Source: Alphaproteobacteria bacterium
GTDB lineage: Bacteria > Pseudomonadota > Alphaproteobacteria > SHVV01
NCBI GenBank assembly: GCA_965261735.1
Contig: OZ253470.1
Coordinates: forward strand, 1,088,001 to 1,152,000
Length of the DNA: 64,000 nt
Reading direction: 5' to 3'
A model generated the notes under the pieces. It searched no databases. It was given only the letters and a program-made list of their open reading frames with translations, and was not told the origin of the DNA. Both the position numbers and the translations under genes were made by a program. Below are positions 2,594 through 44,523 of the stretch, piece by piece; positions within the stretch are counted from its first letter, which is position 1, and every line of letters starts with the position of its first letter.

Positions 2594-3708
2594 GCCGCAA
2601 GCGCCTCCAGGGCTGGCGTGTAGGTCTCGCCAAGATCGCGGGCGACGGCCTCATACGTGATCCGCCCGCGGCATACGTTCAGGCCGTTGCGCAGGTGCGC
2701 GTCCTCCTTCAGGGCCTGCTCGTATCCCTTGTCGGCGAGCGCGAGCACAAAGGGCAGAGTGGCGTTGTTGAGCGCCTGCGTCGCCGTGCGGGCCGCCGCT
2801 CCGGGCATATTGGTCACGCAGTAGTGGACGACGCCATCGACGATATAGGTCGGATCATCGTGGGTCGTAGGCCGGCTGGTCTCTGAGCAGCCGCCCTGGT
2901 CGATCGACACGTCGACGAACACCGAACCCCGCTTCATCGACTTCACCATGTGCTGGGTGATGACCTTGGGCGCGCTGGCCCCCGGCACGAGTACGGCACC
3001 GATCACGAGATCGGCGAGCAGGAGGTGGTGCTCGAGGGAGTCGACGGTGGAATAGATCGTGTTCAGCGTGGGGCCAAACTGCATGTCGAGCTCGTAGAGC
3101 CGATCGAGCGACTGGTCGATGACCGTCACGCGCGCTTCCATACCCATCGCCATGCGAGCGGCGTTGGTGCCGACGACGCCACCACCGAGGATCACGACGT
3201 CGGCCGCAGGCACGCCGGGAACGCCGCCGAGCAGCATGCCCCGGCCGCCCTGCAGCATCTCCAGGCAGTGGGCGCCGACATGGATCGACATGCGCCCCGC
3301 CACTTCGCTCATCGGCGCCAGCAGCGGCAAGCCTCCCCTCGAATCGGTGACCGTCTCGTAGGCGATGGCAATGGCTCCGGATTCGCGCAAGCCGCGCGCC
3401 TGCACGGGGTCCGGCGCCAAATGCAGGTAGGTGAAGAGGACTTGCCCCTCGCGCAGCATCTTGCATTCGTCGGGGCTCGGCTCCTTGACCTTCGTGATCA
3501 TGTCCGCGGCGCCGAAAATGACGTCTGGCGTCATCGCAATCTCGGCGCCCGCCTTGACGTAGGAATCGTCGTGAAAGCCGATCGCGGCGCCGCAGGCGTG
3601 CTGCACCACGACGCGGTGACCGTGGTGCACGGCCTCACGCACACTGGCCGGGGTCATGCCCACCCGGCTTTCGTGCGCCTTGGTTTCTCTCGGAACGCCG
3701 ATCAGCAT
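2590..3708 (-). CDS. ald: Alanine dehydrogenase
   Basis: MLIGVPRETK start, KVKEP, FTYLHLA, PMSEVAGR, GGGVVG, DVSIDQGGC and HYCVTNMPG. Confidence 0.96.
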   Translation of the reverse strand: MLIGVPRETKAHESRVGMTPASVREAVHHGHRVVVQHACGAAIGFHDDSYVKAGAEIAMTPDVIFGAADMITKVKEPSPDECKMLREGQVLFTYLHLAPDPVQARGLRESGAIAIAYETVTDSRGGLPLLAPMSEVAGRMSIHVGAHCLEMLQGGRGMLLGGVPGVPAADVVILGGGVVGTNAARMAMGMEARVTVIDQSLDRLYELDMQFGPTLNTIYSTVDSLEHHLLLADLVIGAVLVPGASAPKVITQHMVKSMKRGSVFVDVSIDQGGCSETSRPTTHDDPTYIVDGVVHYCVTNMPGAAARTATQALNNATLPFVLALADKGYEQALKEDAHLRNGLNVCRGRITYEAVARDLGETYTPALEALAA

Positions 3709-3748
3709 GTGTGCTTCTCCGTTGCGCCAGAGCGGGTGCCCGCCGGGC

Positions 3749-5089
3749 TCAGGCGATCTCCCTCAAGACCGCGCCGATCGTCTCGAAGAGACGCCCGATC
3801 TCCTCGGCCTCGATGATGAGCGGGGGCGATACTGCGATGGTGTCGCCGGTGGTACGGATCAGGACGCCCTGGTCGAAGCAGCGGGCGAACGCCTCGACGG
3901 CGCGCGCCGTCGGCTGGCCCGGGCGCGGCGCCAGCTCGATGCCCGCGACCATTCCGATATTGCGGACGTCGATGACGTGGGGGGCGCCGGCGAGGCTGTG
4001 GGCGGCTTCCTCGAACACCGGCTCGAGCGCGCTCGCGCGGGCGAACAGACCCTCTTCCGCGTAGACGTCGAGCGCGGCCAGACCGGCCGCGCAGGCGAGC
4101 GGGTGGCCCGAATAGGTGTAGCCGTGAAAGAGCTCGATGGCGCCATCGGCGGCGGCCGCCGTGACGGCGTCGTAAATGCCCGCCCGCGCCGCAACGGCTC
4201 CCATCGGCACCGTCGCGTTGGTGAGCCCCTTGGCACAGGTGAGGATATCGGGAACGACACCGAAACGCTCGGCCGCAAAGCTCGCGCCGAGGCGGCCGAA
4301 CCCGGTGATCACCTCATCGAAGATCAGCAGGATGCCATGGCGGTCGCAAATCTCGCGAAGTCGCTCGAGGTATCCCTTGGGCGGCACCAGCACACCGGTC
4401 GACCCGGCTATGGGCTCGACGATGACCGCGGCGATCGTGGAGGCGTCGTGCAGCACGACCAGGTGCTCGAGGTCGTCGGCCAGGTGCGCACCCCATGCCG
4501 GCTCGCCGCGGGAGAAGGCGTTCTCTTCCAGATTGTGCGTGTGGCTCAGGTGATCGACGCCGTTCAAGAGCGGGCCGAAGGCCTTGCGGTTGGCGGCAAT
4601 TCCGCCGACCGAGATGCCCCCGAAGCCGACCCCGTGATAGCCGCGCTCGCGGCCGATGAGCCGCCGCCGCGAGCTGTCGCCGCGCGCCACGTGGTAGGCG
4701 AGGGCGATCTTCAGGGCGGTATCGACGGCTTCCGAGCCCGAGTTGGTGAAGAACACATGGTCGAGGTCGCCCGGGAGAACGGTGGCGAGGCGGGATGCGA
4801 GCTCGAAGGCGCCGGGGTGGCCCAACTGGAAGGCCGGGGCGTAGTCGAGCTGCCCGACCTGCGCGCGCACAGCGTCGACGATTCGTTCCCGGCAATGGCC
4901 CGCATTGACGCACCACAACCCCGCCGTGCCATCCAAGATCTGGCGCCCGTCGGCGCTCGTGAAGTACATGCCCTTGGCCGCGACGAGGAGGCGTGGCGCC
5001 GCCTTGAACGCCCGATTCGCGGTGAACGGCATCCAATAGGCTTCGAGGTTGTTGGTGGCGGCGTGAGCCATTTCGGCCCCGCTGGTCAT
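3749..5089 (-). CDS. Class III PLP aminotransferase, beta-alanine/omega-amino acid:pyruvate transaminase type
   Basis: YWMPFTANR, DGTAGLWC, NSGSEAVDTALK, YHGVGFGG, FDEVITGFGR and AKGLT. GGAGG RBS upstream. Confidence 0.92.
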   Translation of the reverse strand: MTSGAEMAHAATNNLEAYWMPFTANRAFKAAPRLLVAAKGMYFTSADGRQILDGTAGLWCVNAGHCRERIVDAVRAQVGQLDYAPAFQLGHPGAFELASRLATVLPGDLDHVFFTNSGSEAVDTALKIALAYHVARGDSSRRRLIGRERGYHGVGFGGISVGGIAANRKAFGPLLNGVDHLSHTHNLEENAFSRGEPAWGAHLADDLEHLVVLHDASTIAAVIVEPIAGSTGVLVPPKGYLERLREICDRHGILLIFDEVITGFGRLGASFAAERFGVVPDILTCAKGLTNATVPMGAVAARAGIYDAVTAAAADGAIELFHGYTYSGHPLACAAGLAALDVYAEEGLFARASALEPVFEEAAHSLAGAPHVIDVRNIGMVAGIELAPRPGQPTARAVEAFARCFDQGVLIRTTGDTIAVSPPLIIEAEEIGRLFETIGAVLREIA

Positions 5090-5987
5090 CTCGCCCCTCC
5101 GTGATCCTCAGGCAAGGCGCGACCCTATCAGAATTCGCCACCGCGCGGCAGCGCGCCGGCGGGCTAGGACGACGGTTCGGCGAAATAAAGCGTGACCGGG
5201 CCTTCGACGCCCTTGAGGTCGAACGCGCCGCCCTCCTCGAAGCGCACGTTCTGGCCGGCGCAGAGTTCGCGCACGACGTTGGAGGTCATGACCCGCCCCG
5301 CTTGGCCCTTGTCGCAGATTCGCGCCGCGAGCTGGACCGTGGTGCCGAAGAGGTCATCGTCTTCCTTGATCGGCGTTCCCGAATTGATGCCGATTCGCAC
5401 GTTGACGGGGAGCTCGGGATGGGCCGAGTTGTGGGCCGCGAGGCCGGCTTGCATCTCGAGGGATCCGGTCACGGCGTTCGCGGTGGAGTCGAATCGGGCC
5501 ATGATGCCATCGCCCGTGTGCTTTACCTCGAAGCCGTTGTGGCGCTTTAGCACGGCCCTCACAATCTGATTGTGGGTGCGGACGACCTCCTGGGCTCCGG
5601 CGTCACCGCGCTCCTGCGTCATCGCCGTCGAGCCGACGAGATCGGTGAACATGACAGCGACCAGATCACTGCCCGATCCGGCCTCGGCGGCCGGCTTCTT
5701 CCAGACCTCCAGCGCGCGCTCGAGCTCCGCCGCCGCGTCCCCGCCACCGTCTGCTAGGTGTGTGGTCAGGGCCGTGCCCCCGGCGCGAAACATCTCGGCG
5801 TATTTGGGCTCTAGCAGGTACTCCTCGTAGCGCTTGCTAAAGGTCTTGGCCATCTCGGGCTTGGAGCCCAGAACGGCGACGCACTTACCGAGAAGTTCCG
5901 CGAACTGGCGCTTGCCGAGCCGACCTTCGCGCGCACAGGCCTCGGCGGCGCCAGCGAGGAACAGGTGGCACCCGAACTTGTTGAAAC

Positions 5988-7092
5988 CTTGCCTATCCGG
6001 TTAACGCCCATGACCGCTACATGTAGGGTGCCACCACTCTCCCGAGTAAAGCTCGGCATAGGTTGGAGCAGAGGTGTCGCCCGCGATGCCGAGCAATGAG
6101 CGGAAGGCGTTGAACGGGTAGAACCGCCTGTTGAAGCGGAAGGTGAACTCGTTGAGGTAGGCTTGTAGGTGCTGGTGGCTAACGCCGTGGTGGATACCGA
6201 TCAGCCACGTCTTCAGGTTGGCGAAAACCAGATGGATGATCGGCAGGTATTGCTCGGCAACCTCTGGATCACCACACTCGGCAACAGCGAAGTGCTCATA
6301 GCCGCGCTTCCCGAGGCCAGCATAGCCGCTCCAATCGTCAGTAACGATCAGCGATCGCGGCGCGACGGTGCTCTCGACGAACCCACAGAGCGACTCGGCG
6401 CTACGGTCGAGCACGACGGCGAGCCGAACGCGTCCGGCATAGCGTCCGTCTTTCCGGTTGTCGAGCTTGGTGCCCGGCTTTCGATGACGCACCTCGATGG
6501 CACAGGAGACGGGAACCTTGTGGTGAACACCACGGCCTTCCCCACGCGTTCGCCCGCCAACCCAGGTTTCGTCCACCTCAACATGGTTCTTGGGCTGTCC
6601 ACCGATCCTGTCTTGGTTGGGCCGCACCATGCCCGAGCGGAGCTTGTGGAGAATTTGAAAGGCCGTCTCGTAGCGCGAAAGACCAAGTTGCCGCTGAAAC
6701 TGCACGGCGGACATGCCGGGCGTCTGACTGGCGACCAGATAAGCGGCCCAGAACCAGACGTTCAGCGGAGTGTGGCTACGCTCCATCACTGTTCCCACCG
6801 TCAGCCCGGTGTTCTGGCGGCACTTGCGGCAGCGCAGGACGCCAGGGCGGTTTTCAAAGTGGAACGGCTCTCCCGCCGTGCCGCAGTGCGGGCAGGCAAA
6901 GCCGTCTCCCCAGCGGGCTTTCTCCAGGTAGGCGGCGCAGGCCGCATCATCGGGGAAAAGTCGCTGGAACTCGGGTAGCGAATGCGGGAATGGGAGATCG
7001 GCGCGGTCGAGAACATCCATGGCGCGCTCCCCTATATCCGGGTTGCGCCCATTCTAGCCCTAGTGGGTGTGGGTGTAAACCGGATAGGCAAG
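5988..7092 (-). mobile_element. IS1595 family, ISSod11-like, 1105 bp (copy A)
   Basis: TIRs CTTGCCTATCCGGTT. 8-bp TSD GTTGAAAC at 5980-5987 and 7093-7100. Confidence 0.97.
6001..7020 (-). CDS. IS1595 family transposase
   Basis: Zn ribbon CPHC...CRKC, VEVDETWVGG, VTDDWSGY, IHLVFANLK and YLNEFTFRFNRR. Confidence 0.96.
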   Translation of the reverse strand: MDVLDRADLPFPHSLPEFQRLFPDDAACAAYLEKARWGDGFACPHCGTAGEPFHFENRPGVLRCRKCRQNTGLTVGTVMERSHTPLNVWFWAAYLVASQTPGMSAVQFQRQLGLSRYETAFQILHKLRSGMVRPNQDRIGGQPKNHVEVDETWVGGRTRGEGRGVHHKVPVSCAIEVRHRKPGTKLDNRKDGRYAGRVRLAVVLDRSAESLCGFVESTVAPRSLIVTDDWSGYAGLGKRGYEHFAVAECGDPEVAEQYLPIIHLVFANLKTWLIGIHHGVSHQHLQAYLNEFTFRFNRRFYPFNAFRSLLGIAGDTSAPTYAELYSGEWWHPTCSGHGR

Positions 7093-7584
7093 GTTGAAAC
7101 TATCGAGCTTGAAGCCGTCGGTCGCGAGTCCGGCAATCGCCTCCTCGAGGAATTTCATCATAGAAACTCGCGAATCGCGAAACTCATCCTCAGTGGCCGC
7201 GGTGGTCTCGTCCTCCTCCTCATCGTCGTCCATGTCGTCGTAGGGATTGTCGGCTTCGGCGCCACCGTCGCCGTCGAGCTTTATCTCGATCGTGTCGGCG
7301 AGACTCTGGCTCGCCTCAGGTTGCGCGGCGGCCGCCTCTGCCTGAGGCGGCTCCGGCGGCTTTCCCTCGGAAGCGTTGAGGATGGCAAACTCGGAGGGCT
7401 TGATGAAGATCTTGCCGAGCGTGTAGGCGCAGGCCACGAACGACACGGCAAATACGATCCCATTAAGGATAACCGGGTTCATGTCGTCCTGCGGCGCGGC
7501 TCAAGGCGACGACTTGACCTCGTACGGCGTGTCATGATGGCAGCGCCGCTCCGTCTCCCGGGCACGCCCTCTTGCGGCGTCGCC

Positions 7585-7947
7585 TCAAAGCGTGAACCGG
7601 GTGTACATAAACGTCGTGGCCGCGGCGAAGCCAAAGCTCACGACGGCGATAACGACCACCTTGTAGAAGAGGACCGCCCCGGGGCGGGCCAACACGCGCG
7701 GCGGGCCCGGCGCCTTCTTCGATCCGCGACGCGACCGGCGTACCGGCCGCTCGTCCTCCTCCTCATCGCCATCATCGTCGAAGACGGACCCGCCGACGCC
7801 GCTCGGCCCGCCATATCCCGAGTCATCCCCGTCGTCATCGTCGGCGCTGAAGCGCGGCTCACCTCCGCCTCCACCTCCGCCGCCGCTGCCGCCGCTACCA
7901 GCCTTCTGACTGTCGTAGACGACCTCGCCTTCGACACGGTAGCGCAT
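7585..7947 (-). CDS. Hypothetical protein: Gly/Asp-rich low-complexity region with C-terminal TM helix
   Basis: Open frame with GC3-biased codons and hydrophobic C-terminus VLFYKVVVIAVVSFGFAAAT. Start uncertain. Confidence 0.55.
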   Translation of the reverse strand: MRYRVEGEVVYDSQKAGSGGSGGGGGGGGEPRFSADDDDGDDSGYGGPSGVGGSVFDDDGDEEEDERPVRRSRRGSKKAPGPPRVLARPGAVLFYKVVVIAVVSFGFAAATTFMYTRFTL

Positions 7948-8006
7948 CCGGCGTCGCGGGTGGGGTTTGGGGCGCTGGGCACGCCTCGCGAGCGCGTGCC
8001 GCTCCG

Positions 8007-8951
8007 TCACGCTACGCGGTGCAGCAGCGCCTCGTTGCGCTCCTGGCGCCGGCAATTCTCGACCGCAATGCCGAGGCTCCGCTCCAGCGTCTCGGGGGTG
8101 AGCCAGGCGACATGGGGCATGAGCACCACGTTATCGAGAGCGAACAGTGGATTGTCGGGCTCCAGGGGCTCGCGGGCAAAGACGTCGAGCCCCGCGGCTC
8201 CGAGCCGCCGTTCGCCGAGCCCGGCGACAAGGGCGGCCTCGTCGACGAGCCCACCGCGCGCGGTATTGATCAGGATGGCGCCCGGCTTCATCCGGGCGAT
8301 AGCGGCACCATCGATGAGGTTCTCGGTCTCGGGCGTCAGGGGCAGGTGTAGCGATACGATATCGGCTTCGGCCAGGAGGTCCTCCAGGGGCCGCCATTCG
8401 GCGCCGGCCCGTGTCTCCCTCGACCTCGAATGATAGAGGACACGGGCGCCCAGACCTTCCAGCATGGGCGTGAGCGCCTTGCCCACCGCCCCGTAGCCCA
8501 CCAGCCCGACGGTGCGCCCACCCATCTCGCCGAGCTCATCGAACAGGGCAGCATCCATGGCCCAGCCGGCCCCGGCGCGGCACGCGCGGTCGTAGAGCGG
8601 CAGCCGGCGCAAGGCCGCTAGCATGAGCAGGAGCGCACTCTCGGCCACGGCACGGCTGTTGGTGCCCGGCATGTTGGCTACCTGTATGCCGCGCCCCCGC
8701 GCCGCCTCCAAGTCGATCGTGTTGACACCAACGCCGATCTTCTGGATAAGGCGCAGGCGCGGCGAGCGTTCGATCACCTCGGCCGTGGCCGGTCGCAGCA
8801 CGTGAAACAACACCTCGGCCTTCGCCATCAGCTCCAGGAATCGCCGTTCATCGAGCTCCGCACACGGCGTGATATTGAGCCCCTCGGTCGAGAGCTCGTC
8901 GAGCCGACTGCGAAGGCCCGGACTGGCATCGTATTGAAGGACGACTTCCAT
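8007..8951 (-). CDS. D-isomer specific 2-hydroxyacid dehydrogenase
   Basis: GVGVNTID, GLVGYGAVG, LHLPLT, INTARG, LDVFAREP and PHVAW. Confidence 0.92.
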   Translation of the reverse strand: MEVVLQYDASPGLRSRLDELSTEGLNITPCAELDERRFLELMAKAEVLFHVLRPATAEVIERSPRLRLIQKIGVGVNTIDLEAARGRGIQVANMPGTNSRAVAESALLLMLAALRRLPLYDRACRAGAGWAMDAALFDELGEMGGRTVGLVGYGAVGKALTPMLEGLGARVLYHSRSRETRAGAEWRPLEDLLAEADIVSLHLPLTPETENLIDGAAIARMKPGAILINTARGGLVDEAALVAGLGERRLGAAGLDVFAREPLEPDNPLFALDNVVLMPHVAWLTPETLERSLGIAVENCRRQERNEALLHRVA

Positions 8952-37621: not shown

Positions 37622-38900
37622 GTGGACGACGACGCGTTCCTAGCCTTCCGGCGGCAAACCTACGCGCAGCTGCGCCGGGCGTCGGACCGCGTGCGCAACG
37701 AGTTCATCCCCGACTTCGCCGCCCGAGGCGCACCGACCCGCGAGGCGTTCTACGCCATCAACCGCGGCTATTTCGTGGACGACGTGTTGCGCGGCCAGAT
37801 GGTCAGCGAGAGCGACGCCAAGAGCTTCGCGGCCGACGGCGCCAAGGACCCGTTCTACGTCACCGCGCTCGATGACCTCGGCGGTCCGCCGGCCGGGCGC
37901 GGCAACGCCGGCGGGTTCGAGACACTGCATCCGCGCTTCGCGGAAGCCGTCGTCGCCCGGACCTTCGCCGCGCTGGACGCAGCCGGGCCCTTCGAGGACG
38001 AGGAGGCTTTCCTGCGGGTGCTCACCCTCGTCGACTTCCTGCTGCAAGTCGCCCACTTCGCGAAGGACGGCAGCGGGCGCAGCGGCGAGGACCTGCTGGT
38101 GCTGCTCGGCGAGCGCCATGGCACGCCGCTGACGTTCTCGATCACCGGCTACCGCGGTGCGATCGAGGGTCCGGGGCGGCTCATGTCGCTGCGCCACGCC
38201 ACCCAGAAGATCGCCCAAGTCGAGATCTCGCGAAACTTCTTCGGCTCCCTTGGCTTGAGCCCGCCCGAGGCGACGCCGACCCATATCCGCGACCTGCTCG
38301 AGAGCCTAGTGCGCGTCGGTCGAGCCGCGGGTTCGGGTACCCGCCAGGCGCGCTTGACTTGGCCCGACGGCCTCGGCGGCACCATCGAGGAGATCTTCGC
38401 TCCGCTGGCGCCGGGCGACGACGGGGGCGACCCCGACCTGGCGCGTACCCATCCCTACCGGCTCTACGCGAGTTTCCTCGCCCGGGAGGCGATCTACCTA
38501 ACGCTGTGCCTGGCGGAGCCCGAACGGCTCACGCCGGGCCTGTGCGCGCGCTACCCCCTGTCGATGGCCTGCCGCGCGCGCGACCTCCGGGGTGCCCGGC
38601 GCCATGCGTACCTGGCGGTCCCGGCCCGGGCGGCCGAGGCTGCCGACGAGGCGGTGGCGCGGCTCGAGCTTGTGCGCCGTGGGAAGCTCGCGCACGAGGA
38701 TGCCGAGTTGGCGCGGCTACTCGAGCAGCTCGCGCACCCGGCTCCCCGCCTGGCCGACCTCATCGCCGCTGAGCGTGACTTCGCGCCGCTGGAGGCACTG
38801 CTCGGCCGCCTCCGCCTGTCGGTCACGCCGGCGGTGACGGCGGAAGAGGTGCGGCAAGCTGTTCTCCGCGATCTCAAGATCGTGCCGGAGTCCGGCACCG
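37622..38900 (+). CDS. Hypothetical protein with a degenerate Fic-like motif; 3' end uncertain
   Basis: Coding-like codon usage to about 38890 and motif HFAKDGSGRSG. The ORF reads through into the next gene. Confidence 0.55.
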
Positions 38901-39053
38901 GTTTTGCACAAGGCGCGACTATCGACGAGCGAGCAACCGAAGTCACTCGCGGCAATCCGGCCGCGCGCAGAATTCCAGCGGGCCAAATCCTGAAGTGTTC
39001 CGAACCGGCCCGCGCTTGCCGGCGCGCGGCGATGCGCGCTACAACGAGCGGCG

Positions 39054-39541
39054 ATGGACCAGGGTGCTATCTTCGGCCTGCAGTTCCTGCTGAGCCTGAT
39101 CGTCTACGCTCTGATCGCGAGGTGGTTCGTGGCGCCCTGGCTCGCGGCAAAGCCCGTCGAGCAGGCGCTGGTGCCGCTCATCCTGCCGCACGCGTTCCGC
39201 CACATCGGGCTCACGTTCCTCGTGCCGGGCGTCGTCGCCGCGCCCCTGCCGCCTGCGTTCGCCAACCCCGCCGCCTACGGCGACCTCACCACCGCCGTGC
39301 TCGCCATCGTGGCGCTTGTCGCCCTCCGTGGACGTTGGACGGTGGCACTACCGCTGGTGTGGCTGTTCAACCTCGTCGGCACCGTGGACTTGCTCTACGC
39401 CGTGATAGGGGCTTCACGGTCGATGCGCAGCAGAACATGGGCGCGACCTGGTACATCCCGACCTTCATCGTCCCCCTGCTGCTGGTGACCCACGTCATGG
39501 TCTTCGCCCGCCTCCTGCGCCCAAAGTCGGCCACGCCCTAA
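39054..39541 (+). CDS. Uncharacterised membrane protein (same family as 24046-24642); 1-nt frameshift in the G run at 39408-39411
   Basis: TM helices, AAYGD and FNLVGTVD. C-terminus WYIPTFIVPLLLVTH lies in the adjacent frame. Confidence 0.8.
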
Positions 39542-39653
39542 TCTTGATCTCGCAAGAGGGCGCGGCGGCGACCGCACGGCACCGAAAAGGCGTCGAGCGA
39601 CCTGGAATTCCGATTCCAACGTACCCATGTTTTTGGGGGATTACAAAGAAACG

Positions 39654-39682
39654 TTGACATTATCTAGTCCAGCCCCTATATT
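39654..39682 (+). promoter_or_regulatory. Sigma70-type promoter of the transposase, with the -35 box at the inner edge of the left TIR
   Basis: TTGACA-17 bp-TATATT, about 20 bp upstream of the transposase start. Confidence 0.75.
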
Positions 39683-39700
39683 CAGAGTGTCGGGGGGAGA

Positions 39701-40675
39701 GTGGAAATGGCGAAGAATGCACCCGGAAAAGCCCATCGCGAGGGACTCACCGTCGTCGAACTGATGGACATGTTCCCGACCGAGGAAGCAGCGACTAAGT
39801 GGTTTGAATCCATCATCTGGCCGGATGGTCGCCATTGCCCAAAATGCGGCTCGGTCCGTACCCGCGAAGCCTCTCACAAGTATATGCCTTATTGGTGCAC
39901 CGATTGCCGCTCCTACTTCTCGGTGAAGACGGGAACCGCCATGCAGGCATCGAAAATCCCGATGCGGAAATGGGCGATTGCCATTTACCTGTGCCTGACT
40001 TCGCTCAAGTCGGTTTCGTCCATGAAGCTGAAGCGTGACATCGGCGTTTCGCAGCCGTCGGCGTGGTTCATGATGCAGCGCATTCGGGAAGCCTGGGGCG
40101 GGGAAGGCGAAGGCCCGTTCGATGGTCCGGTCGAGTTTGACGAAAGTTATTTCGGCGGAAAGCGCAAGAACAAGTCGAACGCCCAACGGGTCGAAGCCAC
40201 CGGGCGTGGCCCTGTGGACATGACGGCGGTGGTTGGCGCGAAGGACCGGGCGACGAACAAGGTCAACGCCCGCGTAATCAAGGACATCGACAAGGATACC
40301 CTGCAAGACTTTGTGGCCAAGAATGCCGAGCCTCACACCGTGGTTTACACCGACGACGCAGCGGCTTACGAGGGCATCCCCAACCCGCATGAAAGCGTCA
40401 AGCATTCGGTCTCCGAGTACGTTGACGGAATGGCCCACACCAACGGCATCGAATCCTTCTGGTCGATGCTGAAGCGCGCCCACAAGGGAACCTTCCATAA
40501 GATCAGCCCGAAACATCTGCAACGCTACGTCTCCGAGTTTGCTGGCAAGCACAACATCCGCGACTCAGGAACGCTTGCCCAAATGCACGATACCGTCGCC
40601 CGTCTCATCGGGCGCAACCTTCTCTACCGCGACCTGGTCGCCAGCAACGGGCTTTCGAATGCGAGCCGGTCGTAA
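39701..40675 (+). CDS. IS1595 family transposase (distinct from the multicopy IS)
   Basis: CPKC...CTDC, VEFDESYFGG, VYTDD, HTNGIESFWSMLKR and RYVSEF. Confidence 0.95.
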   Translation: MEMAKNAPGKAHREGLTVVELMDMFPTEEAATKWFESIIWPDGRHCPKCGSVRTREASHKYMPYWCTDCRSYFSVKTGTAMQASKIPMRKWAIAIYLCLTSLKSVSSMKLKRDIGVSQPSAWFMMQRIREAWGGEGEGPFDGPVEFDESYFGGKRKNKSNAQRVEATGRGPVDMTAVVGAKDRATNKVNARVIKDIDKDTLQDFVAKNAEPHTVVYTDDAAAYEGIPNPHESVKHSVSEYVDGMAHTNGIESFWSMLKRAHKGTFHKISPKHLQRYVSEFAGKHNIRDSGTLAQMHDTVARLIGRNLLYRDLVASNGLSNASRS

Positions 40676-40768
40676 CGGATCGACACGGCGAAACAGCGCG
40701 CGCACCAGCGTCTCGGGCGTCGCGCCAACCAAATCCACCTTCGGATCAAGCTTCGGCATGTATTTCAT
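40565..40768 (-). CDS. Small 67-aa protein antisense-overlapping the transposase 3' end
   Basis: ATGA overlap with the MTase-HNH stop and GGAGG RBS. Sequence MKYMPKLDPKVDLVGATPETLVRALFRR... Confidence 0.55.
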   Translation of the reverse strand: MKYMPKLDPKVDLVGATPETLVRALFRRVDPLRPARIRKPVAGDQVAVEKVAPDETGDGIVHLGKRS

Positions 40769-42189
40769 GTTGCAGCCCTCCATTCAGCCATGGTCTTGCC
40801 GCCCTTGCTGCGATTACAGCCCGAGCAAAGTAGTTGCAGGTTGTCGGTGTGGTCGGTGCCGCCCTTTGACCGGGGCAGGATGTGGTCAACGTCCATCACC
40901 CGGAACGGGAAGTGAGTCTCGCAGCCGACACACACGCCTTCCTGTTCTCCGTAGAGGCGGTGGCGGTGCGTCCGGTAGTTCGGAAGCTTGCCTAGGTCAG
41001 TGCGCTTAGGCGCCTCCGTGAGCGCTGTAGCTCCACCCCAAGGCATTTTGCCGCGATCCTCGGCGATCCGTTCGTCTACCAGCTTGATCGCCAGCGGAGA
41101 CAGGTCGACACCCGCCCACTCCCGTTGGAGCCGATCCGCCGCAACAAGGGCCGTGGCGCAACCACAGAAGGGGTCCAGCACCATGTCGCCGGGGTCGGTA
41201 CTAGCGAGTATCACGCGCTCCAGCAATGCGAGGGGCTTTTGTGTCGGATATCCCGTGCGTTCCTTTGCCTGCGAATTTACGGGCGGAATGTCAGTCCAAA
41301 TATCCGGCGGAACTTGGCCGGGACTGGCGGCGAGGTAGCGTTTCAGTTCCGGCGTTCCGTTCGCGGTGAATTCGATCAGGCCCGCCTCGTGCAGCATATC
41401 GAGCCGCGCGAGGATACTTGTTTCGCCGCGGTAGCCGGGGATCAGGTTCGCCTCGATCCACGCCGCGTAATCGCCGATCTTCGGCACGCTCCAACAGCGC
41501 CCAATATCGGTCGGGTTCCAGCCGCGCCACGGTTTCCCGGCCTCGCCGTCGCTCGTCTTGGGGCCGGTCAAGTTGTCCCGGCGATATTGTCCCCGGTCAT
41601 CCACATGGCGGTATTTCGAGCGAACGTTGTCATCTGACAGGGGAACCCTCACCCCGCCGCGGCGGATGTCCGAGCCGTAGAGCAGCAGCCGATCCCCAGT
41701 ACGGCCAAACCGGCCCGCGTCATTGTGATTGCCGATCCGCTTCCAGACGATCTCGTTGCGGAACGCGGACACGCCGAACACGGCATCCATAAGTGTCCGA
41801 AGCCAATGCCCGGCGGCATCGTCGCAGTGGAGGTAGATCGAGCCCATGCCCTTGAGGATGCGGCGCATTTCCAACAGCCGGACGGCCATCATGATGAGGT
41901 AGGCTTGCATCGGCTTGCCGTGCGCTTGCCGCGCTGCTTCAATTACCGAGTGGGCGGCAGGGTGGCGATCCGCCAGTTCACCGTGTTCGTGGACATCAAC
42001 ATCGCTCAACGTCCAAGCGTCTTTGAATGCGGCGCCGGCGGCCTTACTACCTATCGGCGCCTCATAATTTCGGTTCGAGTTGAACGGCGGATCGAGATAG
42101 ATCAGATCCACGCACGCATCGTTCATGCCCCGCATGATTTCGAGATTGTCGCCGGTCCACACCGTCCCGCTGGCGAAGTTAGCGGCCAT
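40765..42189 (-). CDS. Beta-class N4/N6 DNA methyltransferase fused to a C-terminal Zn-HNH endonuclease
   Basis: Motif IV YLDPPF precedes YPTQKP and motif I LDPFCGCAT. C-terminus CVGC...VDHILPRSKGG...NLQLLCSGCNRSKG. Confidence 0.92.
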   Translation of the reverse strand: MAANFASGTVWTGDNLEIMRGMNDACVDLIYLDPPFNSNRNYEAPIGSKAAGAAFKDAWTLSDVDVHEHGELADRHPAAHSVIEAARQAHGKPMQAYLIMMAVRLLEMRRILKGMGSIYLHCDDAAGHWLRTLMDAVFGVSAFRNEIVWKRIGNHNDAGRFGRTGDRLLLYGSDIRRGGVRVPLSDDNVRSKYRHVDDRGQYRRDNLTGPKTSDGEAGKPWRGWNPTDIGRCWSVPKIGDYAAWIEANLIPGYRGETSILARLDMLHEAGLIEFTANGTPELKRYLAASPGQVPPDIWTDIPPVNSQAKERTGYPTQKPLALLERVILASTDPGDMVLDPFCGCATALVAADRLQREWAGVDLSPLAIKLVDERIAEDRGKMPWGGATALTEAPKRTDLGKLPNYRTHRHRLYGEQEGVCVGCETHFPFRVMDVDHILPRSKGGTDHTDNLQLLCSGCNRSKGGKTMAEWRAAT

Positions 42190-42754
42190 GGGGTGGACCA
42201 CTCCGAACAGTTGCCCAATAGGTATCGTCAATACTCCTGCCTATGATGAACCCATTCCTTATCGTTATAAACCCCCGATTCCAGATAACCTTCAATTCAC
42301 ACTTATACTCCCCAGGCTCTATAGTTATATTCTTTGATTGGTCGTTTATTGTTGCCTTTGGTTGTCCCGCTTCTTGAAAACATATAACAGCAATTCCAGG
42401 AAGTCCTGCGTCCAAATTCACACGCAGAGAAGGGGTGCCGCTCTCTACATTGATCGTCGGCCTTATCTTGTCCCCGACTAGCGATCCCCTCCCGCCCTCT
42501 CTAATGGTAGCAAACGCGCATAGGTTGTTGGCGGTTTCACGGTAAGCAAGTTTTTTTCTCCATCCCTTGACGGGATCGTTCGCTATGAAACACTTCAGAC
42601 CAACGCCACTTTCTCTTCTGTCGACCGTAAACGTCAAACTTATAGCGGGCTTCCCCCACCACATTTGGAATGCGGTCGGCAGAGTCACAAGGCCAATCCC
42701 AAAAGCGACGCCCGACAGGACCACGTCCGTCCATCCCAACCATTCTGGCACCAT
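42179..42754 (-). CDS. Low-GC hypothetical passenger protein with an N-terminal TM helix
   Basis: 191-aa ORF in AT-richer DNA with hydrophobic VVLSGVAFGIGLVTL. Stop overlaps the MTase start. Confidence 0.7.
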   Translation of the reverse strand: MVPEWLGWTDVVLSGVAFGIGLVTLPTAFQMWWGKPAISLTFTVDRRESGVGLKCFIANDPVKGWRKKLAYRETANNLCAFATIREGGRGSLVGDKIRPTINVESGTPSLRVNLDAGLPGIAVICFQEAGQPKATINDQSKNITIEPGEYKCELKVIWNRGFITIRNGFIIGRSIDDTYWATVRSGPPHGR

Positions 42755-42899
42755 CCCCCCATCATGCGGATTCCCCGTTCGGCGTCAACGTTTCTTTGTA
42801 ATCCCCTGTTTTTGAGGCGGCTTGGCCGCCGCCATTTTCATTTGACTTGCCGTCGACCCGGCGCAGGATGACGGTAAAGCATTGATGCGGGGGGAGCGT

Positions 42900-44327
42900 A
42901 TGTCCTTGGCCGGTTCAGCGACACTGAAGGAAGCAGCCACGCTAAGTGGATGCACGGACGAAGAGCTAGCGCGCTTTGGCGAGAGCCTGCGGGCGCTGTC
43001 GCTGCACCAGGCCACGCGGATCAACCCCTTTGCGTTCGCCGAAGCGGCCGGCCTCGCGTCGGAGACGGCTGTAGATATCTTCGTCCACGGCGCCAAACTC
43101 GGTCTGTTCGACCTCGAATGGGGCATGGTGTGCCCAATGTGCGGCGCCATCACCAACAGCGTCGCTCGGCTCGACAACGTCGAGGAAGATGTTCTGTTCT
43201 GCGCGCAGTGCGCCCGCGATGCGCCGTCGGTCCTGGACGACACGGTCGAGGTCACCTTCGCCTACAACCCGGGCGCCGAAACCTTCGACATGCACGGCGA
43301 CTTTCCGAGCTACCTCGAGTACCACACTTCCTCGAGCTATCCCTATCGCGAGGGCTGGCAGGGCTACCATAAGCGCCACACGGTGGCCGACATCAAGCTC
43401 GGCATCGGCGCGAGCGGCGCGCTGACACTACCGTTAGAAGCCGGGCAAACATACCGGCTGGTGTGCCTCGACACCCATTCGGGGGCGATGCTCGAGGTCG
43501 CGCAGGAAGGGCAGGCGGCGGACGGCGCGAAAGTCGAGGTGACACTCTCGGACGCCGGCTTTTCGCGGGATAGCCTAACTTTGCCCCCAGGCAAGTCGAC
43601 GCTCTCGCTCACCAACCTCACCGACCAGCCGGTATGGTGCTGGGTGGTGCGGCGCAACTTCGATGAAGCGATGGCGATCATGAAACAGATGCCGCCACCG
43701 TTCGGTCGGCGCCTCACCGGCAAGCACCTACTCAACAACCAGGCGTTTCGCGACACCTTCGCGTTGCACGAGCTGGCGCCCGACCTCAAGCTCAAGCTAC
43801 GCAGCATTACCCTACTGTTCACCGACCTCAAGGGCTCCACCGCGCTCTACGACCGCGAGGGCGACCTAGCCGCCTATCGGTTGGTGCAGGACCATTTCGT
43901 TGCGCTGAAGAGGGTCGTGCGCACCCACTCGGGCGCCATGATCAAGACGATGGGCGATGCCGTGATGGCCGCGTTCCCGGACGGCAGCGACGGGACCGCC
44001 GCGGCGATCTCCATGATGACGGCGATGCGGAACCTGGCCGGAGACATCCAAAGCAACGAAATCGGCCTCAAGGTCGGCCTCCACGCCGGGCCGGCACTGG
44101 CGATCAACTCCGGCACCAGCGTCGATTATTTCGGTCAGACCGTGAACATCGCCGCGCGCGTACAGAGCCTTGCCGACGCCGGCGACATCTGTGTCACGGG
44201 GGCGTTGAACGAAGAGGAAGCGATCCCGGCGTTGCTCACCGATGCCGGCTATACCGGCTACTCAGAGATGGCCAAGCTCAAGGGCGTATCGGCCGAAGAG
44301 AAGGTCTTCCGCTACCGCCCGGCCTAA
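42900..44327 (+). CDS. DUF5939-like domain plus class III adenylate/guanylate cyclase
   Basis: CPMC...CAQC N-domain, LLFTDLKGST, KTMGDAVMA and DYFGQTVNIAARV. Confidence 0.88.
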   Translation: MSLAGSATLKEAATLSGCTDEELARFGESLRALSLHQATRINPFAFAEAAGLASETAVDIFVHGAKLGLFDLEWGMVCPMCGAITNSVARLDNVEEDVLFCAQCARDAPSVLDDTVEVTFAYNPGAETFDMHGDFPSYLEYHTSSSYPYREGWQGYHKRHTVADIKLGIGASGALTLPLEAGQTYRLVCLDTHSGAMLEVAQEGQAADGAKVEVTLSDAGFSRDSLTLPPGKSTLSLTNLTDQPVWCWVVRRNFDEAMAIMKQMPPPFGRRLTGKHLLNNQAFRDTFALHELAPDLKLKLRSITLLFTDLKGSTALYDREGDLAAYRLVQDHFVALKRVVRTHSGAMIKTMGDAVMAAFPDGSDGTAAAISMMTAMRNLAGDIQSNEIGLKVGLHAGPALAINSGTSVDYFGQTVNIAARVQSLADAGDICVTGALNEEEAIPALLTDAGYTGYSEMAKLKGVSAEEKVFRYRPA

Positions 44328-44358: not shown

Positions 44359-44523
44359 GGCTGTCGCAGCGCTGGCTGTCGCAGCGCTAGCGTGGCTGTT
44401 CAACGTCGTCGGCACCGCGGACCTGCTCCACGCCGTGTTCCGCGGCTTCATGGTCGATGCCCAGCAGACCATGGGCGCGGCCTGGTACATCCCGACCTTC
44501 ATCGTCCCCCTGCTTCTGGTAAC
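44359..44523 (+). pseudogene. Diverged remnant of the 39054 membrane-protein 3' end, preceded by a 15-bp tandem duplication
   Basis: WLFNVVGTADLL...WYIPTFIVPLLLVT matches 39357-39490. GGCTGTCGCAGCGCT x2 at 44359-44388. Confidence 0.8.

Follow-up and report, generated by a model that had tools for sequence, protein, structure and literature searches.

The 64,000-nucleotide stretch of DNA analysed here (called the window in the following; positions 1,088,001 to 1,152,000 of the forward strand of contig OZ253470.1, assembly GCA_965261735.1) comes from an Alphaproteobacteria bacterium of the GTDB lineage SHVV01 and contains, at positions 39636-42806, an element of 3,171 bp with three genes between a pair of terminal inverted repeats (TIRs). 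These genes code for a transposase of the IS1595 family of insertion sequences (ISs), for a single-chain fusion of a beta-class amino-methyltransferase (MTase) with an HNH nuclease domain at the C terminus, and for a predicted membrane-anchored protein designated ORF3 (open reading frame 3). The third gene is absent from the original prediction, which had been made from the letters of the sequence and had described the locus as an intact IS1595 transporter element with a cargo of unusual architecture. The features of the element, including its target site duplication (TSD), and of further TIR-bounded elements enclosing the fusion gene at other loci are collected in Table 1.

Table 1. Features of the element in the window (window coordinates) and of TIR-bounded elements or units enclosing the MTase-HNH gene at other loci (coordinates within the respective locus).
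Feature	Coordinates	Size	Strand	Characteristics
Left TSD copy, TGTTTTTG	39628-39635	8 bp		sequence identical to 42807-42814; single copy kept at the empty site
Left TIR	39636-39658	23 bp	+	100% complementary to 42784-42806
IS1595-family DDE transposase with N-terminal zinc ribbon	39701-40675	324 aa	+	PF12762, PF12760, NF033547
Single-chain beta-class (Mod-like) amino-MTase with C-terminal HNH	40765-42189	474 aa	-	Pfam, motifs, fold
ORF3, predicted membrane-anchored protein of an unannotated family	42179-42754	191 aa	-	upstream of the fusion gene, 11-nt overlap
Right TIR	42784-42806	23 bp	-	100% complementary to 39636-39658
Right TSD copy, TGTTTTTG	42807-42814	8 bp		abuts the right TIR; follows 39627 directly at the empty site
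L018, element enclosing the fusion gene		2.83 kb		TIR-bounded, perfect 8-bp duplication
L015, element with the fusion gene and extra cargo	2643-7771	5.13 kb		TIR-bounded, perfect T8 duplication; inserted in an IS5-like gene
L053, element enclosing the fusion gene		3.72 kb		TIR-bounded, duplication 7/8
L042, element enclosing the fusion gene		3.21 kb		TIR-bounded, without duplication
L064, element enclosing the fusion gene		3.4 kb		TIR-bounded
L045, unit with the fusion gene alone	5857-7395	1,539 bp		31-bp IS1595-type TIRs, perfect 8-bp duplication TTCATTTT

The transposase matched the profiles PF12762 (1.4e-37, profile positions 3-149 of 153), PF12760 for the zinc ribbon (3.1e-08) and NF033547 (7.5e-54, positions 1-215 of 215, above the cut-off of 75 bits), as is characteristic of an ISXO2/IS1595-type DDE transposase, and full-length relatives of 325-335 residues are encoded by sister elements. 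The TIR pair was the sole long perfect inverted repeat in a search of positions 39000-43500, and the octamers at its outer ends agree in all eight positions, which would occur by chance about once in 65,536 cases by simple arithmetic. A duplication of 8 bp is described for IS1595-family elements (PMC5704250). The element has inserted into an AT-rich target of 8 bp, with a membrane-protein gene on one side and the gene for a DUF5939-adenylate cyclase on the other, and its G+C content (56-65%) is lower than that of its flanks (65-75%). Matching against promoter consensus patterns returned a promoter-like site at 39654-39682 (11 of 12 positions), overlapping the inner end of the left TIR, and a weak one at 42788-42761 (9 of 12 positions), directed inward to ORF3; both are consensus matches only.

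Empty and filled sites were checked by placing Logan contigs from four public runs on window positions 39200-43300. In runs X5 and X9, which represent different coded organisms and different studies, one contig of 1871 nt joined positions 39451-39627 (177 letters without differences) to positions 42807-43300 (494 letters with three differences in X5 and two in X9). These contigs lack exactly 3179 bases, corresponding to the length of the element (3171 bp) together with a single octamer, and represent the empty site. The filled site was recovered from run X1 as a contig leading from position 42763 inside the element across its right end into the flank. Both kinds of contig agree with the flanks of the element in the window by more than 99%, which identifies their sources as close relatives of this genome, and the exact empty site in two runs means that the insertion is real and polymorphic; together with the filled-site contig, it fixes the element ends and the duplication to the base. 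The insertion is recent and the element is intact. Considering anatomy and insertion jointly, we regard it as practically certain that positions 39636-42806 represent an intact IS1595-family transporter IS which has transposed into the 8-bp site. The perfect 23-bp TIRs, the 8-bp TSD and the intact DDE transposase of the original prediction were confirmed by the repeat search, direct reading, the profile matches and the empty site, and its assignment to the IS1595-family transporter ISs was borne out by the transposase profiles, the TIRs, the TSD and the internal cargo. A search of the genomes of 30 relatives with window positions 38400-44000 met sequences that were too diverged, and the cyclase gene alone was matched (77%).

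The genome of 5.03 Mb, assembled as one contig, contains one intact copy of the element and several relatives. Mapping the TIRs genome-wide, as had been suggested for finding sister elements with other cargo, returned the pair of the window and a second pair with one or two mismatches, which bounds a 1.77-kb sister element (L003, 1501-3273) 76% alike to that of the window. In place of the MTase-HNH protein, its passenger is a membrane protein of 196 residues, and a sister IS in a related genome (L096, 79% DNA identity) carries yet another membrane-protein passenger. The element thus shows the organisation of a transporter IS (tIS), with the MTase-HNH and ORF3 genes inside its ends and other cargo inside those of L003 and L096. 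A further relative at about 4.32 Mb (L002) is 83% alike, and an IS6-like element has removed all of its fusion gene except for the last 95 residues, while the locus at about 0.45 Mb (L004) contains a further piece of this fusion fragment, next to the IS6-like gene also present in L002 and to an inserted IS3-like element. The two loci share their ORFs over the first 1.45 kb, including the same IS6-like transposase gene for 231 residues, followed by the same 3' fragment of the MTase-HNH gene, which in L004 is additionally interrupted by the IS3-like element. Their likeness suggests an IS6-mediated duplication of an already broken element. A protein search of the genome detected four MTase-HNH fragments besides the intact copy. 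Four of these five copies or fragments adjoin IS1595 transposases, which are 100, 87, 52 and 25% identical to that of the window (tblastn) and represent four lineages.

The gene for the fusion protein lies in an open frame of positions 40765-42231, but its homologues start at the ATG at 42189. The protein matched PF01555 (1.2e-33, ORF residues 41-383) and, at residues 434-482, the nuclease families HNH_5 (PF14279, 5.5e-12) and HNH (PF01844, 2e-11). In the numbering of the open frame, the DPPF sequence of motif IV (47-50) precedes the DPFCGCA sequence of motif I (353-359) with a variable region in between, which is the order of beta-class PF01555 enzymes. The nuclease motifs C434xxC437, D449-H450, N464 and C469xxC472-N473 supply the D-H pair, the Asn residues and the two CxxC pairs of zinc ligands that are characteristic of beta-beta-alpha-metal HNH domains. 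A cargo convergent with the transposase, consisting of a beta-order amino-MTase (DPPF before the FxG motif) and a C-terminal CxxC-HNH-CxxC domain, had been predicted, and the Pfam matches and the motif order agree with this description. In an alignment of 83 members (numbered after the first row of alignment A2), D-P-P of motif IV, D-P-F-x-G of motif I, C421, C424, D436-H437, N451, C456 and N460 are invariant, and F37 and C459 are conserved in at least 90%. Residues ~150-315 are the most variable, with column entropies of 2.0-2.4 bits versus 0.5-0.9 bits at the motifs, and because the highest entropy lies there, this central region looks like a target-recognition domain.

An AlphaFold2 (AF2) model of the protein from an alignment of 83 rows reached a predicted local distance difference test score (pLDDT) of 91.6 and a predicted template modelling score (pTM) of 0.87, and a model from 14 rows (pLDDT 51.7) was discarded in its favour. 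The best fold matches of the model in the PDB were the Mod subunit of EcoP15I (4zcf, E 1.1e-16), the Mod-like MTase 6k0w, M.BceJIV, CcrM, M.RsrI and MboIIA, with CcrM being recovered as a relative by sequence as well. As modelled, the MTase fold is closest to a Type III Mod subunit, and the MTase part is probably specific for N6-adenine. A homodimer was predicted with a score of 0.75, compared with 0.01 for the best control, a mark that 20 of 30 solved pairs and one of 23 single chains reached. The two chains meet in the MTase core, at least 96% of the contacts are common to the runs, and the pLDDT of the partner is at least 83. The complex model supports a homodimer, but because beta-class MTase dimers have already been solved, this pass may reflect likeness to solved dimers only.

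The nuclease part is a zinc-bound HNH of the Cas9/McrA type; it is matched in sequence by McrA (6ghc, E 1.4e-4) and resembles the HNH domains of IscB and Cas9 (NF040563, 1.7e-09; NF049971, 3.9e-12; both below the cut-offs). PDB searches by sequence and by fold returned no solved chain with both an MTase and an HNH part, and neither a fusion of a beta-class MTase to a C-terminal HNH nor a protein of this type as IS1595 cargo was described in the literature searched, supplementary files excluded; to this extent, the architecture looks as unusual as claimed at the outset. The likeness to McrA bears on an alternative that had been raised together with it, in which the MTase is combined with a modification-dependent, McrA-like nuclease. 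In this reading, the HNH domain is a Type IV nuclease acting on foreign methylated DNA, and the MTase has another specificity and an unrelated role. The characterised restriction enzymes with a C-terminal HNH are mostly of this kind, and TagI, VcaM4I and McrA are described as modification-dependent enzymes with N-terminal reader domains (SRA, EVE or the McrA N-domain; PMC12707154). McrA and the SRA- or EVE-HNH enzymes share the C-terminal zinc-bound HNH with the fusion, but the N-terminal part of the described enzymes reads a modification and that of the fusion writes one: its N-terminal 390 residues are an intact MTase with all catalytic motifs instead of a reader domain, and Pfam and NCBIfam scans of the protein gave no SRA, EVE, PUA or winged-helix match. 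Moreover, if one enzyme both set a mark and cut the DNA bearing it, its host would be damaged unless each activity had a specificity of its own, which nothing suggests. Therefore, we consider the McrA-like alternative highly improbable.

The fusion protein belongs to a large family. A word-indexed search gave at least 8000 scored matches, and 116 of the best 120, with BLASTP identities of 62-97%, carry both PF01555 and an HNH family; few of these 120 are named, and then as 'DNA methyltransferase' or 'hypothetical protein'. At least 588 relatives were recovered from 600 candidate stretches in GTDB with one genome per species, and nine other genomes matched at E<=1e-60 when 300 genomes were sampled evenly from the class of the window. 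The best 80 of the at least 588 GTDB relatives, all from metagenome-assembled genomes, are referred to in the following as the 80 loci. They are distributed over Chloroflexota, Poribacteria, Acidobacteriota, Latescibacterota, Pseudomonadota, Cyanobacteriota, Bacteroidota, Verrucomicrobiota and others, as well as one Nitrosopumilus archaeon. Several of these host lineages are typical of marine sponge microbiomes; run X20, which is labelled as a sponge metagenome (0.05 share), was rejected as evidence of habitat. In the family tree of 81 rows, the phyla are thoroughly intermixed, which suggests that the fusion gene spreads horizontally.

In the metagenome runs, the summed contig depth over the element peaked at positions 40433-40569, a conserved part of the transposase gene, and at 42077-42213, the DPPF region of the MTase, with the larger peak reaching 5,500-8,700 versus about 10 on the flanks. 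Peaks as sharp as these mean that many related copies from other organisms in the samples must contribute. Contigs of the RNA run X16 matched parts of the transposase and MTase-HNH genes only, with 90-99% likeness; they derive from relatives, and DNA carry-over may be involved.

All-against-all clustering of the flank ORFs of the 80 loci revealed no recurrent neighbour except for an IS1595 transposase, the other clusters consisting of widespread families of enzymes and of ORFs that lie antisense inside the fusion gene itself. Among the longest flank ORFs on either side (78 + 78), a choice that undercounts short genes such as those for transposases, no Pfam family occurred more than three times, and most coded for housekeeping functions such as tRNA synthetases, Hsp70, ribonucleotide reductase or respiratory subunits. 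The fusion gene is therefore solitary and has no partner gene. Its position alone among housekeeping genes at most loci, the mixing of phyla on the tree and the several decayed copies in this genome would also suit a stand-alone selfish homing gene, in which the HNH domain cuts alleles without the gene, the MTase protects the carriers, and the gene spreads by repair, with the link to the IS being secondary. However, neither a conserved insertion site nor flanking homology was seen among the 80 loci, and the visible boundaries are IS1595 TIRs with 8-bp duplications, which indicate transposition and not homing; we regard homing as very unlikely.

A sister clade of the family provides evidence on the role of the C-terminal module. 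In L083, L084, L088, L080 and L021, an Mrr_cat domain of the PD-(D/E)XK type replaces the HNH, and its D...QVK core is invariant in all six aligned sequences of the clade, the sixth of which (L076) has no Pfam nuclease match. The closest plasmid relative, a protein of 574 residues on pMLa of Mesorhizobium japonicum (L103, 3989-5713), has the same MTase and Mrr_cat layout and is annotated as a methyltransferase only. The occurrence of two unrelated nuclease folds at one position argues that DNA cutting is the selected function of this module. This observation has to be set against the view that the fusion is in effect an orphan MTase of regulatory or protective function, whose HNH is a DNA-binding or clamp module or catalytically silent, and which as cargo would shield the mobile DNA or the host from other restriction systems or alter gene expression. 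CcrM, a beta-class relative by sequence and fold, is an orphan MTase with a DNA-binding segment at its C terminus; plasmids and phages, where orphan MTases are usual, commonly carry relatives of the MTase part that stand alone; and the solitary state of the fusion gene also fits. Nevertheless, the 83 aligned sequences keep the D-H pair, both Asn residues and the four zinc cysteines of the HNH without, or almost without, exception, and an unrelated nuclease fold with an intact D...QVK core in the sister clade is hard to explain unless DNA cutting is selected. We conclude that the orphan-MTase view is rather unlikely.

We detected an IS1595 transposase within 6 kb of the fusion gene at 14 of the 80 loci by tblastn with the transposase of the window; at 10 of these 14 it lies within ~1 kb of the fusion gene, and two of the matches are fragments of 42 residues only. 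Ten of these genomes, with 46.7 Mb together, contain 23, 7, 12, 6, 3, 4, 5, 9, 2 and 0 IS1595 matches, which corresponds to ~1.5 per Mb, and by this arithmetic a random stretch of 13 kb would hold an IS1595 transposase about 2% of the time. In the class sample, an IS1595 transposase was present within 1.5 kb at two of nine HNH-bearing loci. The original prediction had named a lack of enrichment of the homologues near IS1595 elements as a ground for its rejection, but the association is enriched at 14 of 80 loci versus the ~2% expected, at four of five in the genome itself and at two of nine class-wide. The transposases beside the fusion gene share 33-81% identity across phyla, and several TIR-bounded elements enclose the gene (Table 1). 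In L045, the TIRs enclose the fusion gene alone, and the unit looks like a non-autonomous, cargo-only element; a fragment of an IS1595 transposase gene lies ~1 kb downstream at the contig end. Besides the transposase and MTase-HNH genes, the element L015 contains two small ORFs and one of 437 residues that shows an HExxH-type motif; the reading of the latter as a protease, and of the interrupted gene as that of an IS5-like transposase, was made by eye. In L053 (7989-9872), the open frame of the transposase extends upstream by ~300 residues that resemble HsdS, a Type I specificity protein, by eye, as if the element had landed in an HsdS-like gene.

The recurrence of the fusion gene beside very different IS1595 lineages, with 25-100% identity within one genome and 33-81% across phyla, the existence of a TIR-bounded unit with the MTase-HNH gene only (L045) and the likeness of the HNH to those of IscB and Cas9, both matches lying below the cut-offs, would be in line with a role as a transposition accessory. 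TnsA makes the second-strand cut in Tn7, and TnpB and IscB of IS200/IS605 elements cut in such a way that repair restores the element; by analogy, the fusion might cut the second strand at the element ends or cut empty or donor sites, with methylation marking the treated DNA. We regard this as quite unlikely, because no IS1595 transposase occurs within 6 kb of 66 of the 80 homologues, the IS lineage of the window element also includes sister elements (L003, L096) with other cargo or none, and the orientation of the fusion gene relative to the transposase gene varies, being tandem in L042, L018, L015, L064 and L020 and convergent in the element of the window, L057 and L053. In addition, the variation in the central region of the protein resembles that of a specificity domain, in contrast to element ends, which are conserved.

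The ORF3 gene and the fusion gene probably form one operon. The G+C content of the ORF3 part is 47-53%, versus 56-65% in the rest of the element, and its product gave no match in Pfam, NCBIfam or PADLOC and is not similar to the passenger of L003. Its family comprises 162 representative proteins at E<=0.001, which are nearly all 170-210 residues long, align end to end and share a membrane helix at the N terminus, the conserved motif LPTAFQMWWG and a body rich in beta structure; in the Atlas, it is represented by clusters of 'hypothetical proteins' only. A metagenome scan returned four ORF3 loci, three of them on contigs of less than 2 kb. In the remaining one, L113, which is the sole other ORF3 locus with enough flank, the relative (204-755) is separated by 56 bp from a convergent IS1595 transposase gene (37% identical), and no TIR pair was found around it. 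Because of this neighbouring transposase, ORF3 may be a second recurrent IS1595 passenger. In the flanks of the element, the 3' end of the ORF for the membrane protein on the left contains 138 bp (39352-39489) that recur with 88% identity at 44385-44523, which is ~5 kb to the right and past the cyclase gene, and the ORFs at both places share similar C-terminal peptides.

Siguier et al. reportedly defined the IS1595 family and its passenger genes in 2009. Among its transporter ISs, tISCpe8 and MTnSag1 are described with 25-bp TIRs, 8-bp repeats and passenger genes (PMC5704250), and ISNha5 is another member (PMC11891212). The ISNwi1 group, which the original prediction had brought up for its passenger genes, is named in the literature searched by two unrelated genome reports only. 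The element of the window resembles them in its IS1595 DDE transposase, TIRs of about 25 bp, 8-bp duplication and internal passengers, but they carry either a gene for lincosamide resistance along with a mobilisation function or a regulator of transcription instead of a methylase-nuclease together with a membrane protein. IS220, which carries a methyltransferase passenger, belongs to another family (IS1380), and its description gives no sign of a fused nuclease (PMC11891212). Furuta, Abe and Kobayashi (2010; PMC2853133) described restriction-modification (R-M) units with inverted repeats and 8-bp duplications, verified by empty sites, one of which is a single-chain Type IIG gene, and raised mobilisation in trans as a non-autonomous unit. 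The cargo-only unit L045 is of this kind, non-autonomous and possibly mobilised in trans. In contrast to the element of the window, the units of Furuta et al. have neither a transposase nor an assigned IS family, and their enzymes are ordinary two-gene Type II systems or gamma-class Type IIG enzymes (PMC2853133).

With respect to the enzyme itself, the fusion combines MTase and nuclease domains in one polypeptide without separate partner genes, as is characteristic of single-chain Type IIG/IIC enzymes, and the working principle proposed for it is the same as that of MmeI and other Type IIG/IIL enzymes. MmeI consists of a PD-(D/E)XK nuclease and an MTase of the gamma class. In its polypeptide, the endonuclease is N-terminal, the MTase central and the recognition domain C-terminal (PMC2582602), a layout shared with BpuSI (N-terminal PD-(D/E)XK, gamma-class MTase, C-terminal recognition domain) and not found in the fusion, in which a beta-class MTase with an internal recognition region is followed by the C-terminal HNH. 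In its beta class and central target-recognition domain, the protein resembles EcoP15I Mod (4zcf), and it is matched by the MTase_III profiles of PADLOC (2e-31). However, it contains a small fused HNH in place of the separate, ATP-driven Res subunit of Type III systems, and no Res-like or helicase family recurs near the 80 loci or is present inside the element of the window. HVO_A0006 was dismissed as irrelevant for comparison, because it is described as an N-terminal fragment of a Type IIG nuclease (PMC4389544). We conclude that the element is a variant of two known kinds, a transporter IS and a single-chain R-M-like enzyme, and does not represent a new category.

The conserved catalytic motifs, the variable central region, the nuclease swap in the sister clade and the absence of a partner gene together suggest an R-M-like function of the fusion, which we consider moderately probable on this sequence evidence. 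As proposed, a homodimer held together by the MTase cores would read a short DNA motif via the central regions and methylate this motif on resident DNA with S-adenosylmethionine, while the two HNH domains would nick or cut DNA carrying the unmethylated motif, either on incoming phage or plasmid DNA or on a chromosome that has lost the fusion gene. Because one gene contains both modification and cleavage, it can move alone, and IS1595 transposases would mobilise it in cis or, as a TIR-bounded unit with the MTase-HNH gene only, in trans; in return, the gene would repay the element with a benefit in defence or addiction. Insertion and R-M-like mobile cargo function taken together form the explanation towards which we lean as a whole. 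In a more general form, Mod-like beta-class MTases with an interchangeable C-terminal nuclease of the HNH or Mrr type may be a large unrecognised class of one-gene R-M systems in standing partnership with IS1595 elements, where the IS moves the gene across genomes and phyla, in cis or as cargo only, and the gene makes loss of the IS costly. We put this forward tentatively, as a possible but doubtful generalisation, in which the gene would act as a protein-guided counterpart, by analogy, of TnpB and IscB in their retention role.

Several observations weigh against an R-M-like gene maintained in partnership with the IS. Because no IS1595 transposase lies within 6 kb at the 66 loci mentioned above, and no TIR pair was found there, the IS is one vehicle for the gene and not a requirement; a scan of the IS-less loci for the TIR motif gave nothing beyond the known elements, with motif counts of 15 and 12 against a chance expectation of 15. 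The IS-adjacent rows are scattered over the tree of 81 rows with at least four changes needed, so that these members do not form one clade, which fits repeated capture or repeated loss alike. Collections of plasmids (462 matching records) and phages (250) were matched by the MTase part only and contained no fusion. Four decayed copies beside one intact copy in the same genome suggest that selection to keep the gene is not strong. When a single-chain enzyme is lost, its methylase disappears along with its nuclease, so that post-segregational killing of the classical type need not follow, and an HNH provides one active site and may nick only. Finally, ORF3 was found at none of the 80 MTase-HNH loci and travels with the fusion here only.

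If the fusion is active as proposed, it would represent a new single-chain R-M layout, in which a methylase resembling Type III Mod carries its own small nuclease, and a specificity domain varying across hundreds of relatives would make the family a possible source of sequence-specific cutters or nickases of less than 500 residues. It would also show clearly how a gene for defence or addiction spreads as the passenger of a simple IS, a process whose steps are visible in the occupied and empty sites of natural populations, in autonomous elements and units of cargo only, and in decayed copies. Should the nuclease be inactive, the element would remain a new transporter IS that is well documented, though of an ordinary kind. 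The interest of the finding, which is more general than first seen, lies in the predicted layout of the enzyme, in its wide occurrence and in the clean record of how it has spread in nature, and an active enzyme would help to explain how R-M genes are shared across phyla in uncultured communities exposed to phages.

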